A program made the translations under genes and the position numbers. A stretch of 64,000 nt of DNA, taken from the NCBI GenBank assembly GCA_963799775.1, contig CAWCYD010000003.1, positions 192,001-256,000 of the forward strand, written 5' to 3'. Below are positions 42,235-63,161 of this stretch, one piece after another. The DNA comes from an uncultured archaeon (GTDB lineage: Archaea > Thermoproteota > Nitrososphaeria > Nitrososphaerales > Gagatemarchaeaceae). A model generated the notes under the pieces. The model did no database searches and was not told where the DNA came from. It saw only the letters and a list, made by a program, of their open reading frames with translations. Position 1 is the first letter of the stretch. The number at the start of each line of letters is the position of its first letter.

Positions 42235-42277
42235 ATTATTAGTGTTCATTCCTCGTGCCATCCTGAGCGTAGAATGG

Positions 42278-43716
42278 GTGACCACTTTTGGCAGCGAGCT
42301 CAGACTTGCCCGACAATCGCTGAAAGCTGAAAGGCTGAGGACGACCGATTCTCCCCGAGGGCTCTTCGTCAAGGTCCAGGAAGAGTTCGAGAACGCGTTC
42401 CTTCTAGAGTCTGCCATAGGAGAGCAGAGACTCGCGGAATACTCCTTCATCGGCTTTGGCCCGGGAACGCTCCTGAGTCTCAAGGACGGCCGGATTGATG
42501 CGCGTTCATCCGACGGAAGCAAGGACAGCTTACAGACCGACGAGCCGCTCGAGGACCTCAAGCGACTCCTCTCAATCCCGATCCCTTCAGGTCTGCGAGC
42601 GCGAAGCCCGTTCAGGTTCATCGGGGGCGCCGTCGGCTACATCTCCTATGACTCTGTGCGGTATTGGGAGCGGCTGCCAGTCAAAGCGAAGGATGACCTG
42701 TCGCTCCCCGACATGGAGTTCGGCATCTATACCGATGGGATCGCCTTCGACCACATCGGCAAGACGATCCACTACTATTCGCTGGGCAAAGAGAACCGAC
42801 TAGACCTGGTCCAGCGGTTGCTCCGCGCCAGCCCTCCGGAACGCGAGGGGCTCGAAGCTCGAGGCGTCGCGAGGCCGACGGTGGAAAAACCCAGGTTCGA
42901 GTCGATGGTCGAGGCAGCGAAGAGACAGATCACTGCGGGTGACATCTTCCAGGTCGTCCTCTCCAAGCGCTACGACTTCCAGCTGGAAGGCGACCTCTCC
43001 GTCTTCTACGAGGCGCTGAGCGAGATCAACCCTTCCCCCTACATGTACTTCCTGAAGTTCGGGGACCGTAAGATCGTAGGCTCCAGCCCCGAGATGCTGG
43101 TGAGGGTCGAGAACCGGCAGGTCGAGACCTTCCCAATCGCCGGTACGCGCCCTCATCTCATGGACAAGGCTGAGAACGCGAAGCTCACCAAGGAGATGCT
43201 CGCCGACCCCAAGGAGAAGGCGGAGCACGTGATGCTCGTCGACCTCGCGAGGAACGACGTCGGAAGGGTCGCGAAGTACGGGACGGTCAAGGTCCCCGAG
43301 CTGCTGACCGTCCAGCAGTTCAGCCACGTCCAGCACATCGTCTCGAGGGTGGTCGGGGCACTCAGGCCCGAGTTCAACTCTTTCGACGCGATGCGCGCGA
43401 TGTTCCCCGCCGGGACTGTCTCTGGCGCCCCAAAGCCCCGCGCGATGGAGATCATCGAGGAGATCGAACCGGTCAGGAGGGTCCCTACGCGGGGGCGCTC
43501 GGATACTTCTCGTTCAACGGGAACGCCGACTTTGCCATCACGATCAGGACACTCGTCGCCAGGGGGTCGAAGTGTAGCATCCAGTCAGGAGCCGGGATCG
43601 TCGCGGACTCTGACCCGTCGAAGGAATGGCACGAGACAGAGGCCAAGGCAGCCGGTCTGATGAGGGCGGTCGAGAAGGCGACCGGCAGCAAACTGAGGGG
43701 GGCCTCGGGGAGATGA
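42278..43716 (+). CDS. trpE: Anthranilate synthase component I (indels near 43480-43500; start uncertain)
   Basis: FLLES, GDIFQVVLS, NPSPYM, SSPE, EHVMLVDLARND, FPAGTVSGAPK. Confidence 0.95.
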
Positions 43717-48086: not shown

Positions 48087-48902
48087 GCCCCATCTCCTCG
48101 GTCTTCGCCAAGCTCTCAGGAGAGGCAGCCCTCGTGGCCTACGTCATGGGAGGCGACCCCGACCTGGCGGCGTCTGCCCACGTGATCGACGCGGTGATCC
48201 GCGGGGGCGCTGACATCGTGGAGGTTGGCCTACCGTTCTCCGACCCGATCGCGGACGGCAAGTCGATACAGGCCGCAGATGTCCGAGCCCTGTCGTCAGG
48301 CTCCACCCCGGCAAAGGTCATGAGCGTCATCTCGAGCGTCAAGGCGCGTCATCCGGAGGTGCACCATCGTCGCCATGACGTACTACAACATACTCTACTC
48401 CAACGGCGTCGAGAAGTTCCTGCTGCAGGCGAAGAGCGGCGGAGTCGACGGGATGATCGTCCCCGACCTGCCTTTGGAGGAGGTCGCAGACTACCATCGG
48501 ATCGCAAGGTCGCTTGGACTGGATACGATACTCTTGGCGGCCCCTACCACTCCTCCAGAGAGGATGCGGAGGATCGTCGAGCAGACGTCGGGATTCCTAT
48601 ACCTTGTCTCACTCATGGGCGTTACGGGGGCGCGCCCAGGGGTCGAGGAGAGCAGCCTCGAGCTGGTCAAGAACGCGAAGAAGTTCGCAAAGGAAAGGAA
48701 CGTCCCCCTCGGCGTGGGTTTCGGCATATCGACGCCAGACCAGGTCCGGGCCATGGTCGAAGCTGGCGCTGACGCCGTGATAGTCGGAAGCGGAATCGTG
48801 GACAAGGTCGCGGGCTACGACTCTGCCGGGAGCTCGGTCTCGCTCGTGAAGATCGCCGAATACGTGCGAGCGCTGAAGGAAGCTACCAGAAAGAAGAGCT
48901 AA
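48083..48902 (+). CDS. trpA: Tryptophan synthase alpha chain (probable CTG start; indel near 48360)
   Basis: [34 protein letters not shown]. Confidence 0.95.
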
Positions 48903-54517: not shown

Positions 54518-55390
54518 TTGCTCTTTCGGCCCCCTTTCTTCCGACTCGGAGACTGCCCGCCCTTTAGCGCGGCCACAAGCGCTTCCCTCATCTCGCTCTC
54601 GGGGGCCCCCCTTCCCGTCCAGAGCTTGAAGGCAGCCATCCCTTGGTGCAAGAGCATGTCCTCGCCATGTATGACCTTCGCGCCCGACCGGCGGGCCTCC
54701 ACAAGCAGGCCGGTCTCCTTGGGACGGTAGACGGCGTCGAACACGACCTCGCTTCCCGGAACGATCCGCTTCGCCCCGGAGGGGAGGGCAGCCCCGTCTG
54801 CCCCCATGGGCGAGGCGTTGAATATCAGGTCATGGTTGAGATGATGGAGGTCGCCTCATCGAGGCCAGGGTGAGGTTGAGGCGCGGGAAAGCCTTCTCCA
54901 TGTCCTGCACGAACGACCTCGCGCGCTCGGGGTCGCGGACTGCCACGCCCACGTCGACTATCCCGAGCCTGTTCATGGCCTCGCAGAACGCTCGCGCTGC
55001 ACCGCCCGCCCCTATCAGGAGCGCGTTCCTGACGTAGATGGAGGCAAGCAGCCCGCGGAGCGGCTCCACGATCCCGTCCGGGTCCGTATTGTGCCCGGAG
55101 TACCTCCCGTCCTCCTCGAGCTTCACAGTGTTGACAGCTTGTATCCTCGTCGCGACGGCGTCGAGCTCGTCCAGGAACCGGAGCACGGCCGCCTTGAACG
55201 GGATGGTGACGTTCATCCCCTTGAAGCGGATCGAGATGAGGCGGCGGAACTCCCTCGGGAACGCCTGCTCTGGAACGCTCACCTGCGAGTACTCGGCGTC
55301 GATCGCCAGGGCCTTGAACGCGGCGTTCATCATGGCCGGCGAGGGCGAGCGAGACACGTCCCTCCCCACGATGCAGTAGCGGTCGGTCAT
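54514..55390 (-). CDS. aroE: Shikimate dehydrogenase (indel near 54840)
   Basis: SPSPAM, NVTIPFK, AVNT, NTD..G, GAGGAAR, DAVY.P. Confidence 0.93.
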
Positions 55391-56087
55391 CCCGCTTCGT
55401 TGGGGACCAGGCCCCTGAACTCAATCATGGTGGAAATCGAGAGCTGGCCAGGCGCGACCGCATCGTTGGGGAGAGCGGCGTAGGCGATTGGAGCCTGCAT
55501 GAACATGGAGAGCAGTCGCGACGAGGCACCCTCCTCGCCCATGCAGAACGCCGTCACCTTCCCCGGGTTCTCCTCGCAGAGCCTCAGTGCGCTGACGTTG
55601 TCCTCGAGCTTTGTTGCCGTCGTCACCACCTTCGCTATCGCCCCGTATTGCAGCTCGTCTTTGCAGCTTCTCCTCAGCTCGCTCAGCGGAGGTGCCCCTT
55701 GAAGTCGTGCCACGAGACGATCCTCTCCACCTTGTTCGGCAGGCTCTTCAGCCACCTCTCGTTGTCGACCGCGGTCCTGAGCTCCACGTCCAGGTAGGCG
55801 GGGAGCATAGTGGCAAGCTCCGAGATCAGGCTCAGGCGCTCGATGTCGCTCCCAGAGAACGCCCCTCCTTCTTGGTTGGTCCTTACGGTCACGACGGAAC
55901 GCGGCGCGAACTTCGCCAGCTTTGTCTTGATGTCCTCAGGCGTCACCCTGCTCATGATGCGGTCTATCCGGAACTCCACCAGGTCCGCGCCTAGATGGAA
56001 CGCATACTCCGTCTTCTGGACCATCTCATCGAGAGAGTCTGCGCTTATCGATGCGCATATCTTGGGCATGACTCGCTTGTTGGCCAT
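55387..56087 (-). CDS. aroD: Type I 3-dehydroquinate dehydratase (indel near 55695)
   Basis: EFRID, TVR...EGG, SWHDF, AKV, FCMG, APGQ. Confidence 0.92.
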
Positions 56088-56103: not shown

Positions 56104-57120
56104 TCAGCGCTCCAAGATGAACTCGTCTACCTCTCCGCCAAAGTGCCTGGCCTTGCCGTGGGCTGCGACGTGGACGAGTATCTCGTCGCCCGCCTTTGCC
56201 TCGGTGACCGCCACGGGCCTGCCGTCCGGCCTCACGAGGCGGATGGTCTCTGCGTTCTGGATCATGGCCGTGCCTTCGTGCCCATCGCACTCCGCGACCA
56301 CCATCACCAAGGGCCTCCTCTCCATCTTTATCCTCCCGACTGTCGCCTCGCGCCTCTTGCCCGCAAAGTCGACGAGCTGGACCTTGTCCCCGGCCTCCAG
56401 CTCAGAGAGGTATCTCGTCTTCCCGTCCGCTCCCAGGATGTAGCTGTGCAGCGCGCCCGCGTTGACCCTGAACGGCCTCGTGGGTATGTACTCGGTGGGG
56501 ATCGTCTCGCTGTGGACGAGGAAGAAGAAGCTGGCCTTGCTCCCTATGAGCATGCCCTCGCCCAGGGAGAGCTGAGATGCGGTGTCGATGCAGACCCTCT
56601 CCCCGTCACCCACGTCCACGATCCGCTTGACCCTGGCCTTTACGAGCTTGAGCTGGTCGCCGTCGACGTTGGCCATAAGTCTCTTGACGGCCGCCAAGGA
56701 CGAGTAGGGCACCACGACGCCGTCGACCCCCTTCTCGAGGATGGAGAACGCCAACCTGATGTCGCTCTCGCTCTTCATGAATGCGTAGATCTTCCTGTGC
56801 TTCCTCCTGAACTCTCCGATGAGGTTCTCAAGAGGTATGATCTTCCAGTTTGTGCAGTCCACCACGACGAACTTGTGGTCATGCTTCAGGGCTGACTCGA
56901 CCGCCCTGTCCAGGTCCTTGGCGCCCTTGACCTCTATCCACGCAAAGTCCCCTTCTTTCTCCTTGTACTCGCGCATTCCCGACCCCGACGCGGCGCCCAG
57001 AGGCCTCGCGCTCCTGTTGATGACTGCGTTGATGCCGGCCCCCTTGGCCTCCTTCAGAGCTTTCGAGAGGTCTTTTGCTTCCGTGAGGTCGAGGATAATC
57101 TCTTTCTCAGGCTGGAGCAG
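56104..57120 (-). CDS. aroB': 3-dehydroquinate synthase II (probable CTG start at 57120)
   Basis: WKIIPLENLI, ERVCIDT, RPFRVNAG, QNAETIRLV, ARHFG. Confidence 0.95.
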   Translation of the reverse strand: MLQPEKEIILDLTEAKDLSKALKEAKGAGINAVINRSARPLGAASGSGMREYKEKEGDFAWIEVKGAKDLDRAVESALKHDHKFVVVDCTNWKIIPLENLIGEFRRKHRKIYAFMKSESDIRLAFSILEKGVDGVVVPYSSLAAVKRLMANVDGDQLKLVKARVKRIVDVGDGERVCIDTASQLSLGEGMLIGSKASFFFLVHSETIPTEYIPTRPFRVNAGALHSYILGADGKTRYLSELEAGDKVQLVDFAGKRREATVGRIKMERRPLVMVVAECDGHEGTAMIQNAETIRLVRPDGRPVAVTEAKAGDEILVHVAAHGKARHFGGEVDEFILER

Positions 57121-57900
57121 CGCCCATTACCTCCATCGCCTCTTCCACGCTGCCTCCGTCGATCACCACCCGCCTGATCGCCCTGACGATGAGGGTCGGG
57201 TCGCGGTGCTGGAATACGTTCCTCCCGAACGTGACGCCTGCGGCCCCTGCCTCCATGACGTCGCTGGCTAGCTTGAGGATCTCAAGGTCGTTCTCTACCT
57301 TCGCCCCTCCCGCGAGGACGACCGGGACAAGGCACTTCCTCACGACTTCCCTGAAGGTCTCCGGGCTCCCTGTGTAGACCGTCTTGACGATGTCCGCCCC
57401 CGACTCGGCCCCGACCCTCGCCACGTGCGCCACCACCTGCGGGTCCGTGGGTCCTTGATGTTCTCGCCCCTGGGGTACATCATCGCGATCAGCGGGACCT
57501 GGTACTCGTCGCACTCGTCCGCGACCAAGCCGAGCTGTTGGAGCATCTCCGGCTCCTCTTTGGAGCCCATGTTGATGTGGACCGAGATCGCGTCCGCACC
57601 GAGCCTCAATCCCTCCACTACCGAGGAACTGACCATCTTCCTGTTCGGCGCAGGGCTTAGGTTGGTGCTCGAGGAGATGTGCATGATCATCCCGATTGGG
57701 GCTGGCTTCCTCATCGCCTTGATCACTCCCTTGTGGACGAGGAAGGCCGTCGCGCCGCCCTTCGCCACCTTCGCGATCATCTCCTCAGGGCCCTCGAGAC
57801 CTGCGATGGGTCCGACTGTGAAGGAGTGGTCCATGGGGATGCAGAGCATCCTTCCGCCCTTCGTTATCCTGTTGATCCTCACCTGCTTCCCGAACACCAT
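57107..57900 (-). CDS. aroA': 2-amino-3,7-dideoxy-D-threo-hept-6-ulosonate (ADH) synthase (indel near 57450)
   Basis: IPMDH, AMMYPRG, GADIVKT, AGG, GRNVFQ; adjacent to DHQ synthase II. Confidence 0.9.
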
Positions 57901-57907
57901 GTCTCCA

Positions 57908-58982
57908 TTACCTCCCCAGGTATCCCTCTCTTTCCATGAGCTCCGCTGTAAGTATTGCCGTCCCGGCCGCTCCACGGATCGTGTTGTGGGAGAGAAGGGT
58001 GAGCTGCAGCGACCTCTCGTCTATCCCGTTCCTGACCCGGCCGACGACGACGCTCATGCCGGGCACGCTCCCCGCCAGCCTGTCGAGGCGCGGCTGGGGC
58101 CTGTCGTTCTCCTTCCTTACGATGATCGGCTGCTGGGGCGCCGTCGGGAGCTTCAGCTTCTGGGGCTCGCCCTTGAACCTCTCCAGAGCCCTCTCGGCAG
58201 ACTTTGGCGAGATCCTCCCCGGGAACTCCGCATAGAGGGTCTCCATGTGCCCGTCGATGACCGCGACCCGGTTGCAGGAGATGCCCATTCTTATCGGGCT
58301 AGGCTTGATCGCGCCGCCGACGAGCTTGCCAAGGATCTTCTTCGCCTCGGCGGCCACCTTCTCCTCCTCGTTCTTGATGTAGGGTATGACGTTCTCCTGT
58401 ATCGCGAGCGAGGGGACTCCCGGATATCCGGCACCTGAGAGGGCCTGCATCGTCGTGACGATGGCCTTCTCGGCGCCGAACTCGTCGATTAGGGGCTTGA
58501 GCACCATGGAGAGGCCCGTGCCCGTGCAGTTCGGCGTCGTCGCTATGGCGCCCTTCCACCCCCTCTTGTTCTTCTGGGACTTTAGAAGGCCCAGGTGCTC
58601 GGCGTTTATCTCGGGTATCATCAGAGGCACGTCTGGGTCCATCCGGTGGGCGCTCGCCTCGCTCACGACCGTGAATCCTGCCTCGGCGAACTTCGACTCG
58701 ACCTCAGCTGCGACCTCCGAAGGCAGCGCAGAGAAGACGACGTCGCATCCCCTCGCGGACTCCGGTCTGGCACGCTGTACGACCTTCGCGGCCATCTCCT
58801 CGTCCATCTCGTCAGGGAACAGCCAGTGCACGGCCTCCCCGTACTTCTTGCCCGCTGACTCGCCTCCCATCAGGCACCTCCAGCCTCAGGTAGGGGTGCC
58901 TGGGGAGCATGTTGATGTAGCGCTGCCCTACTGCGCCCGTCGCGCCCAGCAGGGCGGCCTTGACCTCTCTACGCTTGCTCAT
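57908..58982 (-). CDS. asd: Aspartate-semialdehyde dehydrogenase (indel near 58880)
   Basis: LGATGAVGQ, PEIN, PNC, QALSGAGYPG, HNTIRGAAG. Confidence 0.95.
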
Positions 58983-60226
58983 CGTGATTGCATCCTTCCT
59001 GGGGCTTGCGGCTCGCTCGCCATCGCCTCCGTCACCAGGCTGTAGGCCCTTTCCGAGTCGTCGTTTGAGACGAAGACCCTGACGGACGAGAGGATCGTCA
59101 CTATGCCGTAGACGTTGATGCCCGTCTTTGCGAGAGGAGTGGTGATCCTCTGGACCACACCGCGCTCCGTCTCGAGCGCCGCCCCCTTGACGGTGATCAT
59201 GGAGAGGTGGGGGAACTCGGAGACGGCCTTGCCTATCTTCTCCTCTATGAGCACATGGTGAACGCTGTCCAGCACGTTCTCGCCCCCGCCCACGTAGAAG
59301 ATGGCCGCGCTCGTCTCGAGCGAGAGGGCCAGCAGGTCGCCTCGAGCCTCTCTCACCGCAGCGACCGCTCGCATGATCGAGTCGGTCTTGGCCGGATTGA
59401 GGCCGACGAGGGTGATCATCGAGACCCCTCCTCGTACGATCTCCACCTGGGCGGGCGAGAGCTCACCCTTGATGACAGTCCCGGAGTCGAGCTTCTCGAG
59501 GCTCGTGACCCTGATCCGGAGTCCGGATGATTGGTATCTGAGGGCCTTTACGTGGAGGAACTTTGCCCCGCCCGCCGCGAGCATCTCAGCTTCCTCGCCG
59601 TTCAGACTCTCGATGAACTGCGGGTTGGTGACCTTGTCGGGGTCGCTCGAGTAGACCCCTTCCACGTCCTTGACCAGTATGACCTCCTTCGCATCCAAGC
59701 AGTTGCCGAGCAGCACGGCCGTCGTGTCGCTCCCTCCTCTGCCCAATGTCGTCGTCTTTCCGCGGATCGTCTTCCCCAGGAAGCCGCAGACGACAGGCAC
59801 GCGTCCCGCCGCCAAAAGAGGCATAATCAGCTGCTGGGCCTTCGCCCTGCTCTCCGCCACGAGCGGGTTCGCGTCTAGATGCTTCTCGTCCGTGATGACG
59901 GGCCAGTACGGAGTATCGGGGTCGACGACGACCGACTGGAGGCCGAACGACGCGAGGGCCGCCGCGACGAGTCTGGCGCTCGTCTTCTCTCCGGACGAGA
60001 GCAGCTCGTCGAGCAGATGGGGCTCGATGCCCGGGTTCTCCTTCTTCGAGAGGGACATTATCTGATCTGTGACGCCCTTCATCGCGGAGACGACCGCGAC
60101 CACCCCGAGCCCCTTGCTCTTCGTCTCTTTGATCAGGGAAGCCACTTGGTTGATGGCCTTCTCGTTCTCGAGAACCGATCCGCCGAACTTGACGACGACG
60201 GTCTCAATCATCTTAGTTGTGCTCAT
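58979..60226 (-). CDS. lysC: Aspartate kinase
   Basis: KFGGSV, VVSAM, TLGRGGSDTTA, DVEGVYSSDP; ACT-like C-terminus. Confidence 0.94.
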   Translation of the reverse strand: MSTTKMIETVVVKFGGSVLENEKAINQVASLIKETKSKGLGVVAVVSAMKGVTDQIMSLSKKENPGIEPHLLDELLSSGEKTSARLVAAALASFGLQSVVVDPDTPYWPVITDEKHLDANPLVAESRAKAQQLIMPLLAAGRVPVVCGFLGKTIRGKTTTLGRGGSDTTAVLLGNCLDAKEVILVKDVEGVYSSDPDKVTNPQFIESLNGEEAEMLAAGGAKFLHVKALRYQSSGLRIRVTSLEKLDSGTVIKGELSPAQVEIVRGGVSMITLVGLNPAKTDSIMRAVAAVREARGDLLALSLETSAAIFYVGGGENVLDSVHHVLIEEKIGKAVSEFPHLSMITVKGAALETERGVVQRITTPLAKTGINVYGIVTILSSVRVFVSNDDSERAYSLVTEAMASEPQAPGRMQSR

Positions 60227-60274
60227 GGTGCAAGACGCTCCAGCTGATTTTCGCGTAGGAAACTAGAGCGCGAG

Positions 60275-60349
60275 CTAGTAGCGAAAACCGAAGATGGGCT
60301 TCCAATAACCGAGGTTCCCATAAACTGAACCGCCTCTGTGGAGCTCCAT
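60275..60349 (-). CDS. Putative aro operon leader peptide MELHRGGSVYGNLGYWKPIFGFRY
   Basis: 24 codons with 3 Tyr, 2 Phe, 1 Trp; ATAAATA box at 60382-60388; stop 48 nt before lysC. Confidence 0.72.
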   Translation of the reverse strand: MELHRGGSVYGNLGYWKPIFGFRY

Positions 60350-60563
60350 CTCTTCTTCACTCTCTGGCGCTCGAGAATCGATATTTATGCATTGCTGAGT
60401 TGGAACGGCGCCTTTCCCCTGGCCCACAGGGCATCGCACTGGTTCTCTGGTCTGTCTACCTGGCCGAAAGATTCTTTCGAGAAAAATCATAAACATCACT
60501 TCCGACATATTAAATAGAGGAGGTCGGGGCACCGAAAAATCCTCAGGGTAGGGTACTGGTCGT

Positions 60564-62126
60564 ATGGTTGCCACGCTTGTTTTCTCACCTGTAGCCGGAA
60601 TAATCCTCGGTTTATCGGTGCTCCTCAGCTTCTCCTTCTTCATCTACGGCATCAACACGCTCTATCTTACTCGCAAGGCCCGCGGTTACACCCAGCCGGC
60701 GTTGGCGACGTTGAAGGAAAGGCCCCCCGTTGCGGTGCATCTGCCCGTCTACAACGAGTTCTACGTGGCCGACAGGCTCCTCAACGCCTGCGCCAAGATG
60801 GCCGACCATTACGGGAAGAGTCTGGTGAGAGTCGTCGTGATCGACGACTCGGATGACGAGACGCGCCAGAAGCTCGACGGGCTCGCCTCGGACTACACCT
60901 CCAAGGGGTACAAGGTCGAGCTCCTCCGCAGGGGGACCAGGGCTGGCTTCAAGGCCGGGGCTCTTCAGGCTGCCCTCGAGAAGACGACCGAGCCGTTCGT
61001 CGCCGTCTTCGACGCGGACTTTGCCCCCAGCGAGGACTTCCTCGAGAGGACCGTCCCCTTCATGATCCAAGACGACAAGGTGGGGTTCGTCCAGTGCAGG
61101 TGGACCCACTTCGACAGGGGTTACAACATGATCACCGAGACTCTCGCGATAGGCGTCGACGCCCACTTCCTGCTGGAGCAGCCCGGCAGATGGAGCGGAG
61201 GCTACATGATGAACTTCAACGGGAGCGCAGGTCTCCTCCGGACAGTGGCCATCGTCAGTGCGGGAGGATGGAACGCCGACACCCTCGCAGAAGACCTCGA
61301 CCTCAGCTACCGCATGCAGCTCAACGGTTTCAAGCCGGTCTATCTGAAAGACGTGAAGTTCCCGGCAGAGCTCCCACCGACGATCACGAGCCTGAAGAGA
61401 CAGCAGGGCAGGTGGGCCCGGGGCTCCATCCAGACGGCGCGCAAGGTCTGGCCCACGATATACGCCTCCAAGAAGCTCTCCGTCAGGCAGAAGTTCGAGG
61501 CCTTCGTCCACCTGACGTACTACATGGTCCATCCCCTCATGGTGGCCTCGTTCGTCCTTGCCCTTCTCGCGACCTTCCTCAACGTGAACGTCATCAACTA
61601 CGCGGTCCACGTGACGATCCCGAGCCCTGGGGCGATAGTCGGCTCGCCGGCCGAGGTGACACTGAGCATCGTGCCCTGGGCGATCTTCGCCCTCATGATC
61701 GTCCTCTCGACGCTCTCGGTGCTCTACTACTGCGTGGAGGCTGTGAGGGCCCAGCACATGGGCCTTTTCAAGAACGTCAGGCAGATCATCCTTCTAGTCA
61801 TCCTTGGATATGGGATCAGCGTCAGCAACTCCGTGAGCGCTCTCTCGGGCCTCCTCTCGCCGCAGACCGGAACGTTCCTGAGGACGCCAAAGTACGCCAT
61901 CACCAGCAAGACTGGGACTTGGAAGGAGAAGAAGTACCAACTGACTCTCAACAGGGAGACCGTTTTCGAGATGATCGCCACGGGGGTCGGAATAATCGCG
62001 ATAATCTACGCCATGGCCCTGGGGAACCTTGGGATCCTCCCGATACTTGCGGTCTATGTCACCGGTTACCTGCTGGTGCTCTTCCTGACGCTCTCCCAGT
62101 CTGTCTCCAGACAAAGCGGCAGCTGA
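60564..62126 (+). CDS. Processive GT2 glycosyltransferase (cellulose synthase-like)
   Basis: PVYNE, DDS, KAGAL, FDAD, AEDLD, QQGRWARG; multiple TMs. Confidence 0.92.
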   Translation: MVATLVFSPVAGIILGLSVLLSFSFFIYGINTLYLTRKARGYTQPALATLKERPPVAVHLPVYNEFYVADRLLNACAKMADHYGKSLVRVVVIDDSDDETRQKLDGLASDYTSKGYKVELLRRGTRAGFKAGALQAALEKTTEPFVAVFDADFAPSEDFLERTVPFMIQDDKVGFVQCRWTHFDRGYNMITETLAIGVDAHFLLEQPGRWSGGYMMNFNGSAGLLRTVAIVSAGGWNADTLAEDLDLSYRMQLNGFKPVYLKDVKFPAELPPTITSLKRQQGRWARGSIQTARKVWPTIYASKKLSVRQKFEAFVHLTYYMVHPLMVASFVLALLATFLNVNVINYAVHVTIPSPGAIVGSPAEVTLSIVPWAIFALMIVLSTLSVLYYCVEAVRAQHMGLFKNVRQIILLVILGYGISVSNSVSALSGLLSPQTGTFLRTPKYAITSKTGTWKEKKYQLTLNRETVFEMIATGVGIIAIIYAMALGNLGILPILAVYVTGYLLVLFLTLSQSVSRQSGS

Positions 62127-62144: not shown

Positions 62145-63161
62145 TCAGATCCCAGCCGTGGGGATCAGCTTCGCGTTCGTCGTGATCCTGCTCTCGCGCC
62201 GGAGGATGACCACCACGAAGGCGATGATCCAAGGGATGAAGATGAGCTCCCCGATGACAGAGTGGAAGGCCTCGAATGCCTTTGGGTTCGTGATGTTGCT
62301 CATCGCATAGGCGGCGAGCAGCGCCAGCCTGAGGACGTTGACCAGGAACGAGCCGACGACCCCCGCGAGCAGGTAGAGCGCTCCTCGGGTCCAGCCGGTG
62401 CCCACTTTCACGCAGATGGCAAGGACCACAAACAGGCCTATCACGATCCCGTCCAATCCAGCAGAGGGCCAGAAGACCTGGAGGTTCATCGACCCCAGGC
62501 TGTTCTGGAGCATCAGGATGTTCCCCTGGGAGTGCGCCACGCCGGGTGCGAAGAGGTTGAGCACTCCCGAGACGACTTGGAGGACCGGAGGGACGACGTA
62601 CCCGAACGGCCCTAGGGTGTTCTCCGGCAACACGACGTCGATGAAAAGGAAAGAAGCCATCCCGACCGTGTAGATGAGCGGGGTCACGGTCCTGGACCTC
62701 CTGTCAACCATCAAGAGGGCGATGAGGAATACCGACGTGACTGCGTAGTCGATCGCCCAGACCCAGCTGTATTGGACGATAGTCGGGTTTACCCCGAGAT
62801 TCGTCCCGGCCTTGACCAGCCAGTTGAAGACAGAGGGTTGGGCGAAGGTCACGTAATATGCGCCAGCCACGACGAGCGTAGACCAGGCGAGCAAGGCCCC
62901 TCTCTTCTCTCTCAAGGGTGCCAATGACCTGCTGCCTGCCTCGAGGAAGACAAGCGGCACGATTGCGAGCATCGCGGACCTGCCCTGGTTCCAGGTCCTA
63001 GTGAAGCTGTAGGGGTCTGCCAGGAATGCTATCAAGACGAGGACTGCGAAGTAGCCTATGTATGGCATCCCGAGGAGGCGAGAGACGACGCGAGCCAGCG
63101 GCCGCTCTGCCTGTGGACTGGCATCACCTCCCGAGCTCTCTGTTGCAGCCAAGGACTTCAA
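62145..63161 (-). CDS. Archaeosortase/exosortase family protein (thaumarchaeosortase-like)
   Basis: WNQGR, VFWPSAG, VNVLR, FHS..GE..FI.W; multiple TMs. Confidence 0.8.
   Translation of the reverse strand: MKSLAATESSGGDASPQAERPLARVVSRLLGMPYIGYFAVLVLIAFLADPYSFTRTWNQGRSAMLAIVPLVFLEAGSRSLAPLREKRGALLAWSTLVVAGAYYVTFAQPSVFNWLVKAGTNLGVNPTIVQYSWVWAIDYAVTSVFLIALLMVDRRSRTVTPLIYTVGMASFLFIDVVLPENTLGPFGYVVPPVLQVVSGVLNLFAPGVAHSQGNILMLQNSLGSMNLQVFWPSAGLDGIVIGLFVVLAICVKVGTGWTRGALYLLAGVVGSFLVNVLRLALLAAYAMSNITNPKAFEAFHSVIGELIFIPWIIAFVVVILRRESRITTNAKLIPTAGI

Follow-up and report, generated by a model that had tools for sequence, protein, structure and literature searches.

The DNA analysed here is a stretch of 64,000 nucleotides (nt) from an uncultured archaeon of the family Gagatemarchaeaceae, order Nitrososphaerales (GenBank assembly GCA_963799775.1, contig CAWCYD010000003.1, positions 192,001 to 256,000), referred to as a whole as the window. 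On its minus strand lysC heads an operon for the biosynthesis of aromatic amino acids, and a short leader open reading frame (ORF) lies between a TATA-like promoter element and lysC. This leader is the subject of the present analysis. From its sequence and that of its relatives we consider it probable that tyrosine is sensed here by programmed +1 ribosomal frameshifting in the leader, in which a hungry Tyr codon would set the reading frame. The features on which this reading is built are:

60382..60388, minus strand: TATA-like promoter element ATAAATA, within GCATAAATA
60275..60349, minus strand: frame-0 leader ORF MELHRGGSVYGNLGYWKPIFGFRY, 24 codons and a TAG stop (ATG at 60349-60347, TAG at 60277-60275)
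60329..60337, minus strand: internal Shine-Dalgarno-like (SD-like) element AGAGGCGGT, codons 5-7 (AGAGGCGGT in the genus, GAGGCGAT in other families)
60326..60328, minus strand: spacer codon TCA, in the E site at the proposed shift; its 3 nt are fixed by the motif as searched, its sequence is variable
60322..60325, minus strand: proposed slip site GTT_T, with the P-site Val codon GTT re-pairing on TTT
60320..60322, minus strand: proposed sensor codon TAT (Tyr10), in the A site
60223..60324, minus strand: +1-frame ORF of 33 codons without a start codon 5' of the slip site; its TGA (60225-60223) overlaps the lysC ATG in CCATGAGC
58979..60226, minus strand: lysC, aspartokinase (Pfam AA_kinase and ACT)

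Pfam assignments confirm the lysC-asd-aro-tyrA operon named in the preliminary description of this DNA. The aspartokinase gene is followed by those for ASA dehydrogenase, a DeoC-type aldolase (the archaeal ADH synthase), DHQS-II (3-dehydroquinate synthase II) and DHQase, and then by those for shikimate dehydrogenase, a GHMP kinase, EPSP synthase, chorismate synthase, a chorismate mutase-aminotransferase fusion and prephenate dehydrogenase. This lysC is an aro-dedicated paralogue, detected (E <= 1e-60) in 47 of the 201 genomes of the order and in none of those of the AmoA-bearing families. All 48 loci that returned a match carry asd or the ADH-synthase gene directly 3' of it; 11 further fetched loci end just past lysC, and the gene order beyond is not visible there. 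A profile search of genome contigs with the lysC alignment gave, among the matches listed, distant aspartokinases of at most 39% identity (Bathyarchaeia, Jordarchaeia and bacteria), which are useless for the leader. Four families of the order have archaeal AmoA in every sampled genome (29 of 81 genomes overall), and none was detected in the seven sampled genomes of the window's family or in the window's own genome. The window thus comes from a non-ammonia-oxidising lineage within an order of ammonia-oxidising archaea.

The preliminary description, made from the window alone, had pointed out the ATAAATA at 60388-60382 and a 24-codon ORF ending 48 nt before lysC, and both are borne out by the relatives. 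ATAAATA is invariant in the 10 sequences of the close clade and the 9 of the second clade of the genus, and both clades keep the ORF, which starts with ATG and has 24 codons in 10/10 sequences of the close clade, and starts with TTG and has 19-20 codons in 9/9 of the second. Its stop stands at the same codon position, variously as TAG, TAA or TGA. Insertions and deletions in the leader ORF are multiples of 3 within the family, where the spacer to lysC measures 40, 41, 42 or 48 nt (48 nt in the window, from the leader TAG to the lysC ATG at 60226-60224). In other families a TATA-like element was read by eye at about 30-38 nt 5' of the leader start codon. Only in the window does the leader ORF form the tail of a 122-codon open frame (60643-60275, minus strand), which overlaps the start of a divergent glycosyltransferase gene; since relatives do not have the same frame, this longer frame is probably meaningless. 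To judge from the alignments, the conservation of the TATA-like element and of the leader ORF, like that of the RNA helix A treated below, is more than chance.

Comparison was extended to 58 lysC loci with an intact N-terminus, drawn from across the families of the order. Their leaders share one short motif in 47 of 58 cases and are otherwise unalignable between families. The motif reads AGAGGCGGTTCAGTTTAT in the genus and GAGGCGAT-NNN-CTT-TAY elsewhere, with GG(C) G(A/G)T NNN NTT T(A/T)(T/C) as the general pattern in the 47, and is translated in the leader frame as R-G-G/D-x-(V/L)-Y; in the window's own genome it is found once at up to three mismatches. Its core parts are a start codon, a stretch complementary to the 16S ribosomal RNA (rRNA) tail, a 3-nt spacer, NUU_U and a Tyr codon. 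In 38 of the 47 leaders a canonical start in frame 0 stands no more than six codons upstream of the motif, and in 16 leaders outside the genus the start codon (ATG, GTG or TTG) stands exactly two codons before the Gly, giving M-R/K-G-D-x-L-Y. Stretches like GGTGG or GGAGG are often present 5-10 nt upstream of the leader start codon. Downstream of the Tyr codon the leaders continue for another 2-17 codons, with sequences unrelated to each other.

The 16S rRNA of the window's own genome ends in ...GGATCACCTCCTT, for which the predicted pairing partner is AGAGGCGGTTC. The duplex has a calculated energy of -12.5 kcal/mol, matched by 0.9% of random genomic 15-mers, and in the genus it may reach within 1 nt of the P-site codon. 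The spacer codon begins with a pyrimidine in 45/47 leaders. At the P-site position the 47 leaders have CTT (26), GTT (18) or TTT (3), each time followed by T; in the A site 36 leaders have TAT, nine TAC, one TTC and one TTT. In the long ORFs of the window's own genome only 10% of Val codons are GTT and 25% of Tyr codons are TAT, and despite this rarity NTT TAT is found in all 19 leaders of the genus.

The reading frames downstream of this motif behave unequally. From the slip site to the region of the lysC start the +1 frame is open in 47/47 leaders, compared with 2/47 for frame 0 and 19/47 for the +2 frame. The +1 ORFs are 24-51 codons long, and in 42 of the 47 leaders the open stretch 5' of the slip site contains no canonical start. 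The +1 stop falls between -15 and +30 nt from the candidate lysC start in 46 of 47, overlapping it as NUGA in 26 of the 47; the exception is L024, whose +1 frame is continuous with that of lysC. In shuffled leaders the probability of such +1 openness was 0.03-0.7 per lineage. With 12 families represented by one lineage each, the product comes to about 4e-8, a figure that takes the lineages as independent, which is only roughly true, even though leaders of different families do not align.

A second leader of the same kind was found in the window before trpE, 3' of a TATA-like CATAAATGA and ahead of the trp operon on the plus strand:

42274..42330, plus strand: twin leader ATG GGT GAC CAC TTT TGG..., translated as MGDHFWQRAQTCPTIAES up to its stop; slip site TTT_T at 42286-42289, TGG at 42289-42291, TrpE in the +1 frame

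Its duplex with the rRNA tail (-11.4 kcal/mol) is matched by 1.8% of random genomic 15-mers. Across the order, and with genome G132, flagged as unpublished, left aside, start-GG(T/C)-G(A/G)N-NNN-NTT-TGG is present in 91 of 108 sampled trpE loci, AmoA-bearing families included. The A-site codon is TGG in 91/91 of these leaders, the P-site codon is CTT in 34, TTT in 32, GTT in 21 and ATT in 4, and the next base is always T. Here the +1 frame is that of TrpE itself: it stays free of stops between the slip site and the conserved TrpE core in 89 of the 91 leaders, against none for frame 0 and one for the +2 frame. At most trp loci the GTG inside GGTGA could act as an ordinary TrpE start. In one genus, however, this GTG is replaced by GCG, which leaves the amino acid of the leader frame unchanged, and 10 genomes from three families carry a TAG in the TrpE frame at the spacer (GTG AYN TAG TTT GG). 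No canonical start is present upstream in the open TrpE frame in 18 of the 91 leaders, and 15 of these have none downstream to the core either. For such genomes the sequence offers no evident route to TrpE other than a +1 shift out of the leader ORF.

In the window's own genome the aro and trp leaders are the only two such sites with a matching gene following. A look-alike at C3:1757488 on the plus strand (...GGT GAT TGG TTT TGG) has no gene in the +1 frame and was judged a chance occurrence, and the pheA of this genome has an ordinary ATG start and no Phe-codon cassette. The parallel between a Tyr codon before a tyrA-containing operon and a Trp codon before a trp operon is the strongest argument for the codon as the sensor.

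From these features we infer frameshifting at the slip site, a rate-limiting Tyr codon, coupling of termination to re-initiation on lysC, and a positive effect on the operon. Ribosomes would start at the ATG at 60349 and arrive with GTT (Val9) in the P site and TAT (60322-60320) in the A site, while AGAGGCGGT, one spacer codon behind, would be paired with the 16S tail. With charged tRNA-Tyr plentiful, TAT would be read, frame 0 kept, and translation terminated at the TAG at 60277-60275, 48 nt short of lysC. With tRNA-Tyr scarce, the peptidyl-tRNA would slip from GUU to UUU and the ribosome would read the start-less +1 ORF across the leader, terminate at the TGA that overlaps the lysC ATG in CCATGAGC, re-initiate on lysC and so raise translation of the operon. 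Basal expression would come from the weakly spaced GGAG of lysC itself. The positive sign of the effect is argued by analogy with the trp leaders, in which the +1 frame is TrpE, and with L024, in which it is fused to lysC.

Several observations weigh against this reading. The rRNA-like stretch keeps a C where perfect pairing needs a U in 45/47 leaders, leaving a C.A mismatch, and its GAGG core lies 7 nt from the P-site codon; the 3 nt of the release factor 2 (RF2) frameshift site require a duplex that extends across GAU/GGU. The window has GUU as its P-site codon, whose tRNA would re-pair on UUU at only two of three positions, worse than that of CUU. The genus is GC-rich, so that open frames are cheap, and in the window's clade the +2 frame is open too. 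Substitutions in the leader ORF showed neither a codon-position bias nor a synonymous excess (169 of 729 synonymous in frame 0, 169 of 734 in frame 2); such counts neither support nor exclude translation of the leader. Positive coupling to lysC is an assumption, and several families have a well-spaced SD of their own before lysC. Moreover, the six leaders of the sister genus g20 (L112-L117) and L125 are without the motif and have an aromatic-rich leader ORF instead. Family f11, with nine aro leaders, has no canonical start near the motif, and in four of the nine (L027, L129, L130 and L135) the spacer codon is a frame-0 stop (three TGA, one TAA), which puts the slip site out of reach of a ribosome elongating in frame 0.

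Altogether 11 of the 58 leaders are without the motif, namely the six of g20 together with L125, L131, L136, L140 and L141. In g20 and L125 the leader ORFs start with TTG and close with Y/F-G-Y/F-(Y-G-Y)-S-W, and an AGCTGG...CCAGCT hairpin spans their stop codon. No slip site was identified in these seven leaders; their +1 frame reaches the lysC start in six of the seven, in DNA that is GC-rich.

The f11 leaders would fit a reading with two independently initiated, overlapping ORFs, in which the rRNA-like stretch would start the +1 ORF at the AUN after UUU and coupling to lysC would be constitutive or controlled at initiation. The nucleotides of the motif are intact in f11 despite the spacer stops, and in L027, L129, L130 and L135 a start-less +1 ORF with an aromatic-rich end (CFFFNFYY) stops 13 nt before lysC. 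The motif may be a true ribosome-binding site in this family, where the +1 codon after TTT is ATT or ATA, and two separate initiations would account for leaders with nothing translatable upstream. A TGA noted inside the lysC matches of f11 had raised a suspicion of TGA recoding, which was rejected, as this stop is the plain end of an intact lysC. Among the 47 leaders the +1 codon after TTT is ATN in those of the TAT type (36/47), and ATG in the window, L008 and L017; the distance from GAGG to ATN is 11 nt, which is long but not impossible. In the TAC-type leaders (9/47), however, this position has ACN, not a start codon, and in the trp twin it has GGN. Two initiations would also leave unexplained both the conserved upstream start codon with its own SD (38/47) and an A-site codon that tracks the end product. 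We regard this reading as very improbable.

The f11 leaders, with their conserved motif, spacer stops and no nearby start, are also what would be expected of a cis-acting motif that works without leader translation, such as a 5' hairpin, a riboswitch-like element, a protein site or a DNA operator, to which the ORFs would be incidental. Conservation is at the nucleotide level and includes synonymous positions, GGC, GAT and CTT being nearly invariant, and the lack of any synonymous or non-synonymous signal fits such an element. In some families, with L124 and L026 as examples, the motif folds on itself: L124 reads AAAGGCGATCGCCTTT, a perfect palindrome in which the start codon pairs with the Tyr codon. 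Leaders that start with GTG have TAC in 6/6 cases, and those that start with ATG have TAT or TAC. In most families, though, the asymmetric GCGAT is without a palindromic partner, and an Rfam search of 59900-60900 (E up to 10) gave no match in the leader and two chance-level matches (E>3) elsewhere. The single copy per genome marks no multi-gene regulon. ATG, GTG and TTG alternate at the start position, with SD-like GGTGG or GGAGG 5-10 nt upstream, and the openness of the +1 frame would be meaningless for an element that is not translated. Finally, NUU_ is followed by UAY where the operon contains tyrA and by UGG where the gene is trpE, a difference that a codon explains and a fold does not. 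A motif acting without translation appears unlikely.

The third alternative concerns the structure of the leader RNA, for which three helices are of interest:

60246..60289, minus strand: helix A, GGTTTTCGC (60289-60281) with GCGAAAATC (60254-60246), RNAalifold columns 78-86/113-121
60235..60271, minus strand: helix B, GCGCTCTAG (60271-60263) with CTGGAGCGT (60243-60235), nine pairs of which two are G.U, covering the lysC GGAG
60291..60352, minus strand: helix P1, start-codon region (60352-60340) with codons 17-20 (60302-60291), enclosing the leader ORF, RNAalifold columns 15-27/65-76

The two pairings drawn in the preliminary description, helix B and that of TTTTCGC (60287-60281) with its complement GCGAAAA (60254-60248) in helix A, can be drawn in the sequence and would compete, helices A and B being mutually exclusive. 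In the close clade helix A has 0 broken cells of 90, a single compensatory pair (in L009, T-A to C-G) and one-sided changes at three pairs; P1 also has one compensatory pair (A-U to U-A, in L009), and a third RNAalifold helix in the clade is a hairpin that involves GAGGCGG. Helix B is missing from the consensus fold; when the 10 close-clade leaders are folded singly, it appears with an extended P1 in the minimum-energy structures of eight. All of these helices are clade-specific, and the linear motif alone is common to the families.

Leader ORFs such as those of trpL and pheL, and those of the ermC type, stand 5' of their operon or gene, contain codons for the end product and are overlapped by alternative helices. 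Classical ribosome-mediated translational attenuation would apply this principle here: a stall at aromatic codons would select either GGTTTTCGC/GCGAAAATC, with the SD free, or GCGCTCTAG/CTGGAGCGT, with the SD hidden, and no change of frame would take place. Consistent with such a mechanism, helix A is unbroken and each of helices A and P1 shows its compensatory change, and the folds of 8/10 close relatives, in which the start region pairs with the end of the ORF next to an SD-covering helix, are ermC-like. Aromatic residues account for 55 of 274 leader residues (20%) in 17 lineage representatives, compared with 53 of 548 (9.7%) in the other two frames (Fisher p = 7e-5), and the motif-less sister genus keeps its YGY(YGY)SW tail. 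About 15 of the 55 aromatic residues, however, are the one homologous Tyr, and the Phe codons of the tail lie in the pyrimidine strand of P1 and helix A, so that they can be accounted for by RNA structure. The window leader has six scattered aromatic codons of three kinds, at most two of them adjacent (Y15 W16). Leader ORFs of other families have 9-22 codons, often with a single conserved Tyr at position 7 (MRGDxLY...), and the aromatic tail is missing in many of them, as in MRGDHLYIL, MRGDRFFGRR and MRRGDLLYRR, each complete to its stop.

The lysC ribosome-binding site is no more paired than in shuffled leaders (mean z +0.22, with z<0 in 10 of 26 representatives), and in the window it is more open than in the leader's own shuffles (0.51 vs 0.39). 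Conserved masking of the SD was dropped as the core mechanism because of this lack of excess sequestration. A scan of 59900-60900 for bacterial promoters and terminators found no terminator-like site; its one sigma-70-like match follows a bacterial consensus and is irrelevant for an archaeon. The even spread of substitutions over codon positions in the leader ORF, given above, also speaks against attenuation as the core mechanism. Attenuation would also leave the rRNA-like stretch, the fixed spacer, NUU_U and the openness of the +1 frame in 47/47 leaders unexplained, and we consider it distinctly unlikely.

The reading proposed in the preliminary description is partly supported. A Y/W/F-rich run in the last 15 codons is present in the window and is a feature of the family, and is not conserved outside it; what relatives keep is the short ORF and an end-product codon, in the form of a single Tyr, rarely a Phe, in place of an aromatic tail. 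Of the competing helices said to sequester the SD, helix A covaries, by one compensatory change, while the lysC SD is no more hidden than in shuffles. The layout of a bacterial attenuator holds as far as a short ORF with an end-product codon, and fails in that there is neither a terminator nor an order-wide run of tandem codons. The idea that charged aromatic tRNAs are sensed is probably right, and a +1 frameshift is a more likely read-out of this sensing than refolding.

Among known systems the +1 frameshift reading has its closest counterpart in the prfB cassette of RF2. According to the accessible part of PMC5009743, a comprehensive recoding review of 2016, RF2 frameshifting proceeds from CUU to UUU before a slow UGA, with an internal SD as stimulator that lies 3 nt from the shift site for +1. 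The leaders described here share with prfB an internal SD-like stretch, a P-site CUU that can move to UUU and a U-initial A-site codon that would be slow, as well as early termination in frame 0 and a productive +1 frame. In prfB, however, decoding is slow at UGA, a stop recognised by the very protein that the gene encodes, whereas here it is a sense codon, UAY in 45/47 aro leaders (TTY in 2/47) and UGG in 91/91 trp leaders. The prfB cassette senses a release factor, and the present leaders would sense an aminoacyl-tRNA, in an archaeal host. In contrast to prfB, the +1 frame of the aro leaders encodes no enzyme (except in the L024 fusion) and ends on the start codon of the next gene, and it is with GAUCA in the rRNA tail that the SD-like stretch would pair, with its conserved C.A mismatch. 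The leader would thus work like a prfB cassette and is not a member of the RF2 family.

Shifting at a slowly read sense codon is described for Ty1, at CUU_AGG_C, in the accessible part of PMC5009743. Ty1 and ABP140 have in common with the leaders the P-site CUU, a slow A-site sense codon and, as far as the same source goes, a shift that depends on tRNA availability. They differ in that the tRNA is constitutively rare, with nothing to suggest that it reports on an amino acid, in the absence of an SD-like stimulator, in being eukaryotic and in having no part in biosynthetic control. Antizyme is likewise similar in that a metabolite-responsive +1 frameshift serves as a feedback sensor (PMC5009743, accessible part). 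It is different in its A-site stop codon, its response to polyamines and its eukaryotic setting, and also in the sign of the effect, since its product represses the pathway that the frameshift here would activate.

With the attenuators the leaders share a short ORF that contains an end-product codon, alternative helices that can be drawn over it, and the idea of a translating ribosome as the sensor of charged tRNA. They differ from them in the lack of a terminator, of order-wide tandem codons and of excess SD sequestration, and in that the elements which are conserved are frameshift signals. In the part of PMC5009743 that is accessible, frameshifting at pheL is described as incidental.

Metatranscriptome contigs from three studies of peat and soil, derived from relatives of 85-95% identity (shares 0.08-0.16), bridge the leader ORF and lysC. 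Such contigs show neither strand, start nor expression, and none of those that bridge the two passes the leader ATG. One adaptor-flanked fragment ends one base inside the leader ATG of a relative, which is a hint at most.

Several of the aro and trp genes in the window look interrupted (57107-57975, 56104-56976, 55683-56087 and 54830-55390 on the minus strand; 42242-43660 and 48134-48772 on the plus strand). The ADH-synthase gene is split into two overlapping ORFs, while it is a single frame in relatives; the DHQS-II match begins at profile position 66, and the matches to DHQase and shikimate dehydrogenase are incomplete. The low-complexity tail of TrpE seems to be out of frame, and the match to TrpA is confined to profile positions 14-88. 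These interruptions may be indel errors of the 3-contig assembly or real decay. On the other side of the leader lie a divergent family-2 glycosyltransferase gene (60564-62126, plus strand) and then a gene for a membrane protein weakly similar to exosortases/archaeosortases (62145-63161, minus strand).

Leader-peptide attenuation and T-boxes are not known from archaea, in which the adjustment of amino-acid synthesis to supply is still little understood. For the archaea studied here, open full-text literature yielded no report of leader peptides or of frameshifting. As far as the accessible part of PMC5009743 goes, "no examples are known" of starvation-driven frameshifting with functional trans-frame products, and the sole archaeal +1 case is that of a virus; the accessible part of a 2013 genome survey (PMC3711429) contains no trp case.

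Taking the aro and trp leaders together, we lean, with some reserve, towards the view that relatives of the ammonia-oxidising archaea, cultured ones included, possess a family of +1 frameshift leaders in which the A-site codon names the amino acid that is sensed, UAY before lysC-aro-tyrA and UGG before trpE, and that in the trp case TrpE would be made only by frameshifting. One consequence would be for annotation, as a trpE without a canonical start, present in at least 15 of 91 genomes, would be called truncated or broken. The AmoA-bearing families with the trp version include complete single-contig genomes, and its presence there makes the idea directly testable in cultured ammonia oxidisers. 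If true, archaea would here have their first cellular site of +1 recoding, and hungry-codon frameshifting its first natural use as a metabolic sensor. Next to leader-peptide attenuation and T-boxes, it would suggest a third solution, built from ribosome mechanics alone, in which the charging of one tRNA sets entry into the productive frame.

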